Below are positions 8,827 through 54,192 of a DNA stretch of 64,000 nt, piece by piece; position 1 is the first letter of the stretch; each line of letters opens with the position of its first letter. The notes below the pieces were generated by a model. That model ran no database searches. It saw only the letters and a program-made list of their open reading frames with translations, and had not been told where the DNA came from. The stretch spans positions 1-64,000 of IMG/VR virus record IMGVR_UViG_3300040801_001810; one strand, 5' to 3'. This DNA comes from a virus (taxonomy: Duplodnaviria > Heunggongvirae > Uroviricota > Caudoviricetes). Position numbers and translations under genes: made by a program.

Positions 8827-8915
8827 TGGCAGATCGCTCAATCGGCAGAGCACCAGGCTGTTAACCTGACGTGGCGTAAGCCCACCTGGGGGTTCAAGTC
8901 CCTCTCTGCCAGCCA
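8827..8915 (+). tRNA. tRNA-Asn(GTT) with long variable arm
   Basis: TGGCAGA/TCTGCCA, G73, CAGG-CTGTTAA-CCTG, ~18-nt variable region, GTTCAAG, CCA. Confidence 0.88.
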
Positions 8916-9979: not shown

Positions 9980-10618
9980 ATGTGGGGTAAAAGAAATGTT
10001 GTTGTACTAAATAAATATGGTGAATATTGGTCTGAAGTTACAGTACGAAGAGCTATTAATAAGATATTAAATCTTAGAGCAACTATAGTAGCAGAAGATA
10101 AATCACATTTTTTAGGTACAATAGTACGAGAAGATGGTCCATCTATTAAATACATTCCTCTATATCGACCGTTTGTAATTCAATTAAAATACTTTGATTA
10201 TTATAAGTATACAAGCGATATTGTTCCATATAGTGATAGACAAGTATTTATTCGAGACAAAAACATTTGTCAATATTGGCATGACTATACATTAAAATTA
10301 GTTGATGGTAAATTAGTCAAAGAAGAAGCAGAACGACACAAGTATAATGTATCTCTATCAGAAAGAACGATAGATCACGTAATACCTGTATCAAAAGGCG
10401 GAAGAAAAGCAGACTATGAAAATGTAGTTTGTTGTTGCAGATATTGCAATGAAGTTATTAAACGAGACATGACTCCCAAAGAAGCAGGGTTAGTTTTAAT
10501 CAAAAAACCCTGTGCTCCTCATAGAGTAAAAGGAGACATAGCAAGAAATATGTTTATGTATGATCCTGACAAAGATTCACATAAAGCATATATAATATGG
10601 AAAAAAGAATCATTTTAA
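9980..10618 (+). CDS. HNH endonuclease (McrA-like)
   Basis: VVVLN, IRDKNICQY, TIDHVIPVSKGG, NVVCCCRYCN. Confidence 0.88.
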   Translation: MWGKRNVVVLNKYGEYWSEVTVRRAINKILNLRATIVAEDKSHFLGTIVREDGPSIKYIPLYRPFVIQLKYFDYYKYTSDIVPYSDRQVFIRDKNICQYWHDYTLKLVDGKLVKEEAERHKYNVSLSERTIDHVIPVSKGGRKADYENVVCCCRYCNEVIKRDMTPKEAGLVLIKKPCAPHRVKGDIARNMFMYDPDKDSHKAYIIWKKESF

Positions 10619-11037: not shown

Positions 11038-11048
11038 TAAGGATTACA

Positions 11049-11381
11049 ATGAAAGACAAATTCAAATTAATAGTTTCATTGGTAGCTATAATCACTATAA
11101 TTGTAATAGGAGTAGGTTTTAGTCAACAAACTCCTCCAAGATTACCAACAGTAATGGCTGAATGTTCTGGAGAAGACGTAGAAGTAACTTTTAACATACC
11201 ATTAGCTGGAGCATTAAAAGTATTAGGATTTAGTGTAGAAAATTCAATTATTAAAGATACAGGAACAGCTGTAATTTATATACCAACAATAGATGTATAT
11301 TATGTTACTAAGCGAGACCAAGAATCAAGAAGATATGATGGAGAAATTTTTTCTTATATTAAATCGGAGTGTTTAAAATGA
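11049..11381 (+). CDS. membrane-anchored hypothetical protein
   Basis: MKDKFKLIVSLVAIITIIVIGVGF signal/anchor; start corrected. Confidence 0.55.
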   Translation: MKDKFKLIVSLVAIITIIVIGVGFSQQTPPRLPTVMAECSGEDVEVTFNIPLAGALKVLGFSVENSIIKDTGTAVIYIPTIDVYYVTKRDQESRRYDGEIFSYIKSECLK

Positions 11382-11638
11382 GTACAGTAGCAATGTTTAC
11401 TTTAACATATGACCAGCTAGAGAACGATTGCAAAATAGCAATGGATGCTACTTTAGAAGCATTAGTAGTTGAAAAAATTCTAGATGAAAAAGTAGCAACA
11501 AATTGGATGAAAGAGCATTCTATTATAATTAGAAAACGTAGTTTCTTTGATAGACTATTTAAACCAGAAAAAGGCAAAAAAGAAGATAGACATTTTACGA
11601 TTGTTAAAAAAGTAGTACCAGAAGAATATTAAAATTAT

Positions 11639-11765
11639 ACGAGGGTAGCTCAGTCGGCGGAGCGACGGTCGAAGACCGTGTCAATGGCCGTTACAGCGTA
11701 CGGGTAACATCTCAGAGACGTTTGAGGTTTGGTCTGCGGAAGTTCAATTCTTCCCCCTCGTGCCA
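11639..11765 (+). ncRNA. 127-nt tRNA-like RNA with non-canonical anticodon arm and large insert
   Basis: ACGAGGG/CCCTCGT acceptor + GCCA, D arm GCTC/GAGC, T arm GGAAG-TTCAATT-CTTCC; middle has ACGGT-CGAAG-ACCGT plus a ~58-nt structured insert. Confidence 0.8.
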
Positions 11766-11771
11766 ATTTAA

Positions 11772-11847
11772 GCGATAGTACATCAATTGGTAGATGGCCA
11801 CGTTGCCAACGTGGAGGTTGCGAGTTCGAGTCTCGCCTATCGCACCA
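11772..11847 (+). tRNA. tRNA-Gly(GCC)
   Basis: GCGATAG/CTATCGC, CCACG-TTGCCAA-CGTGG, A73, CCA. Confidence 0.93.
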
Positions 11848-13079: not shown

Positions 13080-13505
13080 ATGACTCAGTTAGAAAAAGCT
13101 ATTACAATCGCTACAATGGCTCATGCAGGGCAACAAGATAAAGAGGGGCAACCTTACATCTTACATCCTTTGCGTGTCATGATGAGTCTCCAAGGAGACG
13201 TATTAAGAACTATAGCTGTTCTTCATGATGTAGTTGAAGATACTATTTTAACTCTTGATGATCTAAAAGATGATTTTGAAGACGTAGTTGTAGAAGCGGT
13301 AGAAGCTATGACTCACCCTAAAAGCGAATCATATGATGATTACCTACAACGAGTATTAGATAATGTACTAGCTAGAACTGTTAAACTGGCTGATTTACGA
13401 GATAATATCAGTCCAGTAAGATTATACAAATTGGATCCAGATACAATAGTAAGATTAACTAAGAAATATACTAAAGCTATTAAATTACTAGAAGGTTGGA
13501 AATGA
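13080..13505 (+). CDS. HD-domain hydrolase, small alarmone hydrolase (SpoT/Mesh1-like)
   Basis: AHAGQQDKEGQPYILHPLRV, LHDVVEDT, VKLADLRDN. Confidence 0.88.
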   Translation: MTQLEKAITIATMAHAGQQDKEGQPYILHPLRVMMSLQGDVLRTIAVLHDVVEDTILTLDDLKDDFEDVVVEAVEAMTHPKSESYDDYLQRVLDNVLARTVKLADLRDNISPVRLYKLDPDTIVRLTKKYTKAIKLLEGWK

Positions 13506-15285: not shown

Positions 15286-16428
15286 ATGAGAAAACTAGCA
15301 TCAATTAGAACAGTAGGAGATATAAGACCTATTCCAGATGCTGATGCTATAGAAGTAGCAATAGTAGATGGTTGGGAATGTGTTGTTAAGAAAAATGAAT
15401 TTAGTATTGGTGATAAATGCGTATACATTGAAATTGATAGTATTGTACCACCAAAACCCGAATTTGAATTCTTAGAAAAACGCAGATATAGAGTAAGAAC
15501 TATTAAATTACGTAAACAAGTATCTCAAGGACTAGCATTACCTTTAAGTGCTGTTGGTATTAAAGATAATTATCCTGTAGGAAAAGATGTTACTGAGGAA
15601 CTAGGTGTAGTTAAATATGATCCTCAAGCTCAAAAAGAAAAGAACATGCGTGAAGCTGAGCTTCAAAAGAAAAGCAAGATGTTTAAGTGGCTAATGAGAT
15701 TCGGTTGGTTTAGAAAGCTACAAAAAGGTAAGCGTAAGAATTGGCCTTATTGGATAGCTAAAACTGATGAAGAACGAATTCAAAACATGCCTTCTGTCTT
15801 ACGATATCATGCAGATACTATTTGTTATGCTACAGAGAAAGTAGATGGTAGTAGCGCTAGCTATTCTCTTAAACTTATTGGTAAGTTTCTTTGGTTTAAG
15901 GATATTATTTTTACTGTATGTAGTCGTAATATGTGGCTACAACGTAAGAGACAGAAGTTTACTACGCAAAGCTATAGCTTTGATAGTAATAACTATTGGA
16001 ATATAGCTAAGAAATATGATCTTGAACGTAAGCTACGAGCTATGGGTAAAGAATTAGTTATTCAAGGCGAACTATTGGCAGATGGAGTTCAAAAGAATAA
16101 GTACTTAGTTAAGCCAGGAGATGTTAAGTTTAGAGTATATAATATCTATGATGTTAAAGAAGACACTTGGCTTGGTCTGAATGGTATCAGAACATATTGT
16201 AAAGCACTTGATCTTACTATGGTTCCTATTGTATGGACTGGTAGACTTAAAGAACTTGGAACTACTGTAGCAGAAGTAGTTGAAAAAGCTAAGGGTAAAT
16301 CTGAACTAAATCCTAAGGTTCACAGAGAAGGTATTGTAATTAGACAACTCTTATCTGAAAAAGGTAAGAGAGGTATGAGTTTTAAAGCTATTAACCCTGA
16401 CTTCCTACTTAAATATGAATCAGAATGA
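15286..16428 (+). CDS. RNA ligase, DRB0094/Rnl5 family
   Basis: MRKLASI..PIPDADAIE..VDGWECVVKK, KTDEERIQN, TEKVDGSS, CSRN, QGEL, REGIV, SFKAINPDFLLK. Confidence 0.92.
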   Translation: MRKLASIRTVGDIRPIPDADAIEVAIVDGWECVVKKNEFSIGDKCVYIEIDSIVPPKPEFEFLEKRRYRVRTIKLRKQVSQGLALPLSAVGIKDNYPVGKDVTEELGVVKYDPQAQKEKNMREAELQKKSKMFKWLMRFGWFRKLQKGKRKNWPYWIAKTDEERIQNMPSVLRYHADTICYATEKVDGSSASYSLKLIGKFLWFKDIIFTVCSRNMWLQRKRQKFTTQSYSFDSNNYWNIAKKYDLERKLRAMGKELVIQGELLADGVQKNKYLVKPGDVKFRVYNIYDVKEDTWLGLNGIRTYCKALDLTMVPIVWTGRLKELGTTVAEVVEKAKGKSELNPKVHREGIVIRQLLSEKGKRGMSFKAINPDFLLKYESE

Positions 16429-52953: not shown

Positions 52954-54192
52954 ATGTTTGTAATATATGACAAAGAAAAACAACGAATTCCAATTAAAGT
53001 GTGGCTAGATGATATTAGTCACCTAGAACCAGGATGTTTAGAACAGGCAACTAACCTCTCTAACCTACCCTTTGCTACTAATCATATCTCACTTATGCCT
53101 GATACACATCAAGGTTATGGTATGCCTATCGGGGGTATACTTGCTACGGAAGGAGTTGTAGTTCCTAATGCAGTTGGTGTTGATATCGGATGCGGCATGG
53201 GATTTTTATTAACTAATATTAAATATGAAGATATCAAAGATGTTAAAACTAAAGATAACCAAGACTTAATATGGGCTATCTTAGGAAACATTAAACGAAA
53301 TGTTCCAGTAGGATTTAATCACCATAAAGAACCGCAAGTTTGGTCTGGGTTTGATAGTCCACCAGCTTATTATAATGGGAAAACATTAGAAATAATTGAT
53401 CAACAGTTAACAAAAGCTACATATCAACTAGGTACTCTAGGTGGAGGAAACCACTTTGTAGATTTACAAGTAGATAAGGATGGTTATCTAGCCATTATGA
53501 TTCATAGTGGAAGTAGAAATTTTGGTAAACAAATATGTGATTATTATAACCGTAAAGCTCAAGTATTGAATGAAAGATGGAAAACACTCGTACCTAAATC
53601 AAGTGACCTAGCTTTCTTACCAATTGAAGATGATCTTGGTAAAGAATATATGGACGCAATGAACTATGCTCTTGAATTTGCTAAGCAAAATCGACATTTA
53701 ATTATGGAACGATCTAAAAATGTAGTTCTAAATATGATTCAAAAGTATGCAGGTATTTCCAAAGTAAAAATAACCCAAGAAGTGAATATACATCATAACT
53801 ATGCAGCATGGGAGAATCATTATGGAAAGAACGTCATTATTCACAGGAAGGGCGCAACGCTTGCCCGCTCTAATGGCCTTGGTATTATACCTGGTTCTAT
53901 GGGTACCGCTTCTCATATTGTTAGGGGTCGTGGAAATGATGAAAGCTTTAACTCGTGTAGTCATGGTGCTGGTAGATGCATGGGGAGAAGAGCGGCAACA
54001 AGAAAGTACACAGTCCAAGAAGTTATAGAAGATATAGCTAAGCGTGGGGTTCAAGTTATGAAAGATAACAAGAATGATATAGCAGAAGAATGCCCCTGGT
54101 CTTATAAAGATATAGGAACTGTCATGGATAACCAAAAGGATTTGGTTGATATAGTTAATACACTTACACCTATAGGAGTACTAATAGCATGA
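52954..54192 (+). CDS. rtcB: RtcB RNA ligase
   Basis: MPDTHQGYGMPIG, VGVDIGCG, GTLGGGNHF, HSGSR, HHNY, HRKGA, PGSMG, SCSHGAGR, YKDI. Confidence 0.96.
   Translation: MFVIYDKEKQRIPIKVWLDDISHLEPGCLEQATNLSNLPFATNHISLMPDTHQGYGMPIGGILATEGVVVPNAVGVDIGCGMGFLLTNIKYEDIKDVKTKDNQDLIWAILGNIKRNVPVGFNHHKEPQVWSGFDSPPAYYNGKTLEIIDQQLTKATYQLGTLGGGNHFVDLQVDKDGYLAIMIHSGSRNFGKQICDYYNRKAQVLNERWKTLVPKSSDLAFLPIEDDLGKEYMDAMNYALEFAKQNRHLIMERSKNVVLNMIQKYAGISKVKITQEVNIHHNYAAWENHYGKNVIIHRKGATLARSNGLGIIPGSMGTASHIVRGRGNDESFNSCSHGAGRCMGRRAATRKYTVQEVIEDIAKRGVQVMKDNKNDIAEECPWSYKDIGTVMDNQKDLVDIVNTLTPIGVLIA

Follow-up and report, generated by a model that had tools for sequence, protein, structure and literature searches.

The window analysed here, which is the first 64 kb (positions 1 to 64,000) of a complete 230,193-bp caudoviricete phage genome from IMG/VR (record IMGVR_UViG_3300040801_001810; direct terminal repeats, G+C content about 32%), encodes a 127-nt tRNA-like RNA on the + strand, at 11639..11765 as read from the sequence. 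The best overall explanation of this element, to which we assign a probability of roughly 55%, is that it is a selectively maintained RNA gene with a Trp-type tRNA body that acts as a tRNA mimic. That it is a real, structured RNA without a decoding role is a separate and firmer claim, and one that we hold with high confidence. The evidence comes from the anatomy of the RNA, from a comparison with a single homolog, and from a resemblance to tRNA-Trp.

The tRNA body and its two-hairpin domain

The outer parts of the RNA are those of a tRNA. All coordinates in this section refer to the + strand of the window. The acceptor stem has seven perfect base pairs (ACGAGGG/CCCTCGT, 11639-11645 with 11755-11761), beginning with A1-U72, and its 3' strand runs on into discriminator G73 (11762) and an encoded CCA (11763-11765), the whole 3' segment occupying 11755..11765; both the stem and the 3' end are identical in the homolog, contig L031, described below. 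The D arm (11648..11663) pairs GCTC with GAGC around the 8-nt loop AGTCGGCG, which contains G18 and G19, and the T arm (11738..11754) reads GGAAG-TTCAATT-CTTCC, with TTCGAAT as the corresponding loop in L031. Nucleotides that form tertiary interactions hold a tRNA in its L shape, and here U8, A14, G15/C48, G18, G19, T54, T55, C56 and A58 are all present in both copies. The position of the anticodon arm is taken by the hairpin ACGGT-CGAAG-ACCGT (11665..11679), which has 5 bp and a 5-nt loop, with no U33 and no 7-nt loop; the loop is reduced to a GAA triloop if its C and G also pair.

The position of the variable loop is taken by a 58-nt domain (11680..11737) that forms two hairpins. The first (11690..11708) consists of the stem GTTAC/GTAAC and the loop AGCGTACGG, in which the palindrome CGTACG is embedded. 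The second (11709..11728) reads (AT)CTCAGA-GACG-TTTGAG(GT) in the window copy, with up to 8 bp and the loop GACG, and its core common to both copies has 5-6 bp and a loop that starts with GAGA. When the insert is folded alone, the minimum-energy structure of both copies is a three-way junction in which a possible closing helix (GGCC, 11686..11689, with GGTC, 11731-11734, in the window) joins the two hairpins. A sequence-only reading of this stretch had described these features, and every one of them was found where it had been placed; of its three-way junction, the two hairpins are solid, as judged by comparing the two sequences, being kept by compensatory changes, whereas the junction itself is plausible only. 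Its closing helix is weak, with 4 bp including one G-U in the window and 3 bp (AGC/GCT), shifted by 2 nt and out of register, in L031. The whole RNA folds with z = -2.0, and 3 of 200 shuffled sequences fold equally well. A fold of the window copy with one long hairpin at positions 60-99, which is its minimum-energy structure, was rejected, as it leaves the compensatory change at 56/66 unexplained and loses one pair in L031.

Standard annotation does not recognise the element. It was not called by ARAGORN in default mode or by Rfam, at gathering thresholds or at E values up to 10, the Rfam search being one that the sequence-only reading had proposed. Measured against a canonical tRNA (RF00005), it has the acceptor with CCA and the D and T arms, and lacks both a 7-nt anticodon loop with U33 and purine 37 and recognition by the model. 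Class II tRNAs carry a long variable arm that is a single hairpin starting from position 44/45, and they are specific for Leu, Ser, Tyr or Sec. The element, with two hairpins in 58 nt after six unpaired nucleotides and with a Trp-type body, does not belong to this class.

The only homolog found is a 128-nt tRNA-like gene at 437-564 of the Logan contig L031 (1,334 nt). It was reached through the only close relative (71% amino acid identity), among 5.8 billion proteins, of open reading frame 2 (ORF2), which precedes the RNA in the window, and its gene order is that of the window: the tail of ORF1, ORF2, the tRNA-like gene and tRNA-Gly(GCC). Model R1 scores the window copy at 153 bits, as a single copy in the 230-kb genome, and L031:437-564 at 151 bits. 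In the acceptor, D and T arms that make up the tRNA body, 51 of 54 positions (94%) are identical, compared with 69.5% identity in the insert and a background of 61-78% at third codon positions of ORF1, ORF2 and P0002 and 69% in the adjacent tRNA-Gly; at background rates, 51 or more identities in 54 positions have a probability of 6e-5 to 1e-3. The hairpin in the anticodon position of L031 is GCGGT-CCGAA-GCCGT, again with 5 bp and 5 nt in spite of two compensating indels.

The insert hairpins have diverged in sequence and have kept their pairing. Ten differences fall within the 41 ungapped nucleotides that cover them, and all 11 pairs can still form: two pairs have changed on both sides, from C-G to U-A, and two on one side only. 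If ten changes are placed at random, all 11 pairs are kept with a probability of about 0.004, and are kept with at least two double changes with a probability of about 0.0009. One of the C-G to U-A compensatory changes lies in hairpin 1, and hairpin 2 has the other together with a U-G to C-G change. Eight of the nine loop positions of hairpin 1 are conserved, and this nearly invariant loop, AGCGTACG(G/T), contains the palindrome. In the MAFFT alignment, 95.7% of cells are paired, compared with 41-56% for slid partners, and there are two compensatory pairs compared with none; RNAalifold, applied to a hand-adjusted alignment, returns a cloverleaf with the two insert hairpins. At the level of sequence comparison, these data demonstrate purifying and structural selection on the tRNA body and the insert hairpins. 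The sequence-only reading had taken the intact pairing as an argument against decay and had named homologs with covarying insert stems as its test. The one homolog agrees with it on both counts, retaining the short loop, the tRNA body and both hairpins, the latter with two compensatory changes.

The body most resembles that of tRNA-Trp. The combination of A1-U72 and G73 is the acceptor signature of bacterial tRNA-Trp, comprising determinants for tryptophanyl-tRNA synthetase (TrpRS), and it occurs in one of the 28 tRNAs of the phage, its tRNA-Trp. The pattern formed by the D arm and the 5' strand of the following hairpin retrieved four tRNA-Trp(CCA), two tRNA-Asn and one tRNA-Met from GTDB genomes. 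In tRNA-Trp(CCA) of Rhodospirillales this region reads ...GAGC-G-ACGGT-CTCCAAA-ACCGT..., with an anticodon stem, ACGGT/ACCGT, identical to the stem of the element. The tRNA-Trp of the phage itself (genome 217692-217774) has a GCGGT/ACCGT stem and shares A1-U72, G73 and the D arm with the element, and its variable arm, GCC-GAGA-GGC followed by TTT, recalls hairpin 2, where a loop starting with GAGA is followed by GGTTT. Unlike tRNA-Trp, the element has CGAAG or CCGAA in place of the loop CUCCAAA, and so no CCA anticodon, as well as the 58-nt variable region, and its acceptor and T stem sequences differ from those of tRNA-Trp. On these sequence grounds the element is best described as a Trp-type tRNA body in which the anticodon loop appears to have collapsed and the variable region to have expanded.

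Decoding and alternative readings

The RNA cannot present a normal anticodon in either copy, and codon reading is almost certainly excluded. Opening the last pair of the stem in the anticodon position would give a 7-nt loop, but position 33 is C in both copies. The proposal of the sequence-only reading that this is a non-decoding tRNA mimic is favoured by the short loop in both copies and by the constraint on the body and the hairpins.

Another non-decoding reading is that the RNA is a Y-RNA-like partner of a Ro60/Rsr-type protein, built on a tRNA scaffold, in which the body serves processing and stability and GGUC(C)GAAG is a dock for a host Ro60. YrlA RNAs (RF02553) are circularly permuted, have a sealed acceptor, end in a Ro60-binding stem and are encoded with Ro60/Rsr. 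Their Ro60-contact motif is likely GNCGAAN0-1G, resembling the vertebrate GGUCCGA (Chen et al. 2014, PMC4201824). The hairpin in the window contains GUCGAAG, which fits the YrlA motif, and L031 has GGUCCGAAG, which fits the vertebrate one; in addition, the phage encodes RtcB and has a separate, sub-threshold YrlA-like RNA at genome position 199623-199755. However, the motif arises in 7.7% of shuffled 127-mers of equal composition, and in the element it occupies a hairpin loop away from the 5' end, on the opposite strand from the motif in YrlA. The element itself is not permuted and has no match to RF02553 or the Y RNA models. No TROVE/Ro60 domain (PF05731) was found in the complete 230-kb genome at E values up to 1, in searches that recovered positive controls, and the YrlA-like RNA of the phage travels with DUF7873, not with Ro60. 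We regard this reading as unlikely.

This second RNA lies on the + strand (corresponding to L026:1501-1633 and L066:7624-7756), with a DUF7873 gene (L066:6649-7422) just 5' of it. It is a circularly permuted tRNA-like RNA with a T arm, a sealed acceptor and a D arm, which scores 34 bits with the Rfam YrlA model, whose cut-off is 69. A DUF7873 gene also precedes a YrlA-like RNA that scores below threshold (31-38 bits) in phages of Rhizobium, Klebsiella, Gordonia and Arthrobacter, and a Vibrio phage has a similar DUF7873 module with a weak beta-tmRNA match. All of these DUF7873-linked modules lie in tRNA arrays and none beside Ro60. A divergent Ro60 was looked for near the RNA of our phage: Pfam matched nothing in the neighbouring proteins, and ESM Atlas gave nothing usable for a 664-amino-acid neighbour. 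A 'GU-CGAA' hairpin shared by the element and the YrlA-like RNA was set aside as chance, as five other phages have DUF7873-linked RNAs in which the motif does not occur.

Could the element instead be a decaying, functionless tRNA-Trp pseudogene carried in an accessory cassette? Its anticodon loop is destroyed, two copies only are known, and a close relative of the phage does without it. Set against this are the conservation of the body at 94%, well above the background of about 61-78%, the compensatory changes that keep both hairpins, the nearly invariant loop of hairpin 1, and the retention of an identical 5-bp/5-nt hairpin format through two indels. Decay is, in our judgement, a decidedly unlikely account of such a pattern.

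The RNA might also be aminoacylated without decoding, by TrpRS or seryl-tRNA synthetase (SerRS) through its acceptor or long arm, and donate its amino acid in a non-ribosomal reaction. The acceptor stem is intact, with G73 and an encoded CCA, and a large arm is present in the variable position; SerRS reads the long variable arm and G73 and not the anticodon, which speaks for this reading. TrpRS, on the other hand, depends heavily on the CCA anticodon, a double hairpin of 58 nt after six unpaired nucleotides is unlike the arm of class II tRNAs, and neither ORF1 nor ORF2 has a Pfam match, hence no transferase domain is recognised in the cassette. There is, we think, little chance that the RNA works in this way.

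Least probable is a precursor tRNA from which the insert is excised, with the phage RtcB or Rnl rejoining the ends, to give a decoding tRNA such as tRNA-Leu(CAG): ARAGORN with introns allowed (-i) does call tRNA-Leu(CAG) with a 42-nt intron, the putative loops CUCAGAG (window) and CUUAGAG (L031) are both centred on leucine anticodons, and the phage encodes both ligases, but the proposed anticodon stem, GACGG/ACGTT, is mismatched in the window and has no counterpart in L031 (GGCGG versus ATTTA), the C-to-T change at 'position 34' has a G-to-A partner across hairpin 2 and is thus base-pair covariation, the insert, at 42-58 nt, is well below the size of a group I intron, the splice points fall outside any bulge-helix-bulge motif, and the tRNAs of the phage already serve all 20 amino acids. 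Whichever other excision is tried, a 7-nt loop with U33 does not arise in both copies, and neither insert hairpin supplies one. The sequence-only reading would have yielded to the finding that excision of the insert leaves an ordinary tRNA, and no excision was found that leaves a conserved anticodon arm. ARAGORN also reported 'introns' in contigs L013-L018, which are pairs of adjacent tRNAs merged by the program. An IMG/VR contig with an Rnl homolog carries a 106-nt tRNA-like gene (L011:11874-11979) with a 33-nt insert in its anticodon loop (ARAGORN -i).

The accessory cassette and the tRNA array

The tRNA-like RNA is the last part of a 728-bp cassette (11040..11767, + strand) that also comprises ORF1 and ORF2. 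A contig from sequencing run X2 represents a relative about 85-90% identical, which aligns on both sides of the cassette; in it, eight other letters separate 11039 from 11768, such that tRNA-Ser(GCT) directly precedes tRNA-Gly(GCC). Because so close a relative lacks it, the cassette is accessory. ORF1 (11049..11381, +) encodes 110 amino acids with an N-terminal membrane helix and has no relatives that we could find. ORF2 (11378..11632, +), which ends 6 nt before the RNA, encodes 84 amino acids belonging to phrog_31803, a small phage protein family of unknown function with 82 remote representatives, phage proteins of about 80 amino acids. Its AlphaFold2 model (predicted local distance difference test score of 75) has no fold match in the PDB. 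Six nucleotides 3' of the RNA, and not part of the element, lies tRNA-Gly(GCC) (11772..11847, +).

Promoter-like or terminator-like sites are absent directly beside the element, the nearest candidate being a weak 9/12 promoter-like match inside ORF1. The element therefore probably shares the transcript of the tRNA operon. Two metatranscriptome contigs (X3 and X4) cover the tRNA-Gly region only, with less than 90% identity, and derive from other organisms. An antisense target for the loop of hairpin 1 was looked for, and the + strand of the phage genome contains no CGTACGC site complementary to it.

Searches for further copies covered several collections. Against INPHARED phages, blastn matched the tRNA-Gly only; four DNA-pattern scans of IMG/VR gave chance coding matches, nothing, or none relevant; and a scan of Joint Genome Institute (JGI) metagenomes with the 5' 19-mer of the RNA gave bacterial tRNA-Ile(GAU) and two coding matches only. 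IMG/VR scans anchored on proteins (ORF2, P0002 and DUF7873) revealed no copy, and 22 loci around Rnl homologs contained ordinary tRNAs only when searched with blastn, nhmmer and model R1. Word-based protein searches with ORF1 and P0002 returned the queries themselves only.

The tRNA array, mixed with small ORFs, extends over positions of about 1 to 15 kb of the window, and the whole genome has 28 tRNAs that cover all 20 amino acids (ARAGORN). Among public sequencing runs, the best DNA match is a microbial-mat metagenome. The RNA ligase encoded 3' of the array (15286-16428) is of the Rnl type and has a PHA02142 OB domain, and the window also encodes an RtcB RNA ligase (52954-54192) and an HD_4 hydrolase-type protein that is RelA/SpoT-hydrolase-like (13080-13505). 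Together these three amount to a tool-kit for tRNA repair and detoxification around the array. Within the array, an HNH endonuclease gene (9980-10618) stands between tRNA-Glu and tRNA-Asp. The array is also mosaic, because L031 has an extra ORF of 62 amino acids (L031:659-847) between tRNA-Gly and the P0002 homolog, without a counterpart in the window, and a diverged tRNA-Gly that is 69% identical with many compensatory changes.

Other tRNAs of the phage are unusual as well. Both tRNA-Asn(GTT) (window 8827-8915; a 4-bp stem and a 7-nt loop) and the tRNA-Trp(CCA) described above (GCC-GAGA-GGC) have an enlarged variable arm. The Asn and Trp isotypes are normally class I, and judging from these two the phage seems prone to variable-arm expansion. 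Near the right end of the genome, outside the window, ARAGORN calls a 93-nt 'tRNA-?(Arg|Pyl)' (229881-229973, +). Its anticodon loop, GTCTAA, has 6 nt, its D stem 3 bp and its variable arm 9 bp, and it carries A1-U72, A73 and CCA; it could be an unusual or suppressor-like tRNA.

Proposed function and relation to known systems

The usual interpretation of phage tRNA arrays is that they supplement codons or provide spares against tRNA-cutting defences. A conserved, non-decoding, tRNA-shaped RNA in such an array raises a third option, that some "tRNA genes" of large phages act by shape alone. It is possible, although we would not call it probable, that the element mimics the ligand of a tRNA-binding factor or serves as its decoy. 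The RNA would be excised and finished like a tRNA, by RNase P and 3' trimming and with its encoded CCA, and would fold into an L shape. It would then occupy a factor that recognises the tRNA shape or tRNA-Trp, without being a productive substrate. The most plausible targets would be host nucleases that act on tRNA in defence or stress, or else modifying toxins, and the two-hairpin domain may provide a second binding surface or possibly a surface for dimerisation.

Among the candidates, a role against anticodon nucleases is possible by analogy, and Hughes et al. 2020 (PMC7790460) suggested such a role for the tRNA-like portion of YrlA. There is a published precedent for the idea in Salmonella, where an unidentified nuclease cleaves several tRNAs, tRNA-Trp among them, after position 36. 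In its most specific form, the proposal is that the element, carried on a small cassette that phages exchange, imitates tRNA-Trp without being cleavable. Its tRNA body would dock onto a host enzyme attacking or sensing tRNA-Trp (an anticodon nuclease or a toxin acting on the acceptor end) and jam it, and the 9-nt loop with CGUACG would make a second contact or pair two molecules. So detailed a scheme is rather doubtful; if it is true, it would represent a new class of RNA-based anti-defence factor. The sequence-only reading had also suggested decoys for RelA or for T-box sensors. Both of these require anticodon pairing, for which the element has nothing to offer, and they are therefore unlikely targets.

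Several points weigh against the interpretation as a selectively maintained Trp-type mimic. Only two copies are found, such that the covariation comes from one pairwise comparison, and a shuffle control of the pair count is powerless with two rows (112/500). The assignment to tRNA-Trp is made from few characters, and the acceptor stem resembles bacterial tRNA-Ile(GAU) too. The X2 relative lacks the element. No run on record as RNA contained the stretch. The cassette yields no functional hint, as none of the seven examined contexts of remote ORF2 homologs has such a tRNA-like RNA alongside. A stoichiometric decoy would not obviously be effective against a catalytic nuclease.

If the element does block or titrate a host factor directed at tRNA-Trp, it would be a natural RNA inhibitor and could help to track that factor down. 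It also illustrates, in a natural setting, how a tRNA scaffold can bear a foreign folded module. Such genes are probably under-counted, because tRNA finders and Rfam miss this one.

In terms of known systems, the closest in kind are oversized or non-decoding tRNA-like RNAs. Lak megaphages have tRNA genes with 'enigmatic introns' (Devoto et al. 2019, PMC6784885) which, like the element, are oversized and cannot be classified by bacterial tRNA finders, and whose inserts are likewise conserved and present or absent between relatives (PMC6784885). In contrast to the element, in which no excision creates an anticodon loop common to both copies, the Lak genes have an assignable anticodon once the insert is removed, and there is no sequence similarity between the two. 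A further oversized gene was found in Vibrio phage K481 (OZ196440.1; L070:59-184), where an annotated 126-nt 'tRNA' scoring 37 bits with the Rfam tRNA model lies near a DUF7873 gene. Its variable region of about 55 nt folds into two hairpins, and its anticodon arm looks normal; the giant structured variable region is similar to that of the element, whereas the sequence is unrelated.

The tRNA region of T4 includes RNAC and RNAD, small RNAs of unknown role (PMC3014915; PMC9697503). The sequence-only reading had pointed to this parallel, which is apt as regards location among phage tRNA genes; judging from descriptions in the literature, the resemblance is limited to location. Phage tRNAs are thought to counter tRNA-targeting defences (van den Berg et al. 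2023, PMC10264068), and the tRNAs described there have remodelled anticodon loops and, as in the present case, belong to a phage with many genes for tRNAs and RNA repair. Those tRNAs still decode, unlike the element, which lacks a decoding loop.

Finally, YrlA is also a non-decoding RNA with a faithful D, T and acceptor core that occurs in phages and carries a GNCGAA-type motif; a sequence of this type stands in the hairpin of the element, where it may be fortuitous. The element differs in having normal tRNA ends with CCA and in its two-hairpin domain, which is absent from YrlA. The analogy with Y RNAs made in the sequence-only reading is consequently a loose one: the tRNA-like, non-decoding shape agrees, and permutation, a Ro60 gene and a match to RF02553 are missing. 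Non-decoding tRNA-like RNAs, as exemplified by YrlA, and oversized tRNA genes of megaphages (PMC6784885) were thus already known. The design of the element was not found in Rfam or in the searchable literature, and what is new here is that tRNA ends of the normal kind are combined, on what appears to be a Trp-type body, with an anticodon loop that has collapsed and a variable domain of two hairpins.

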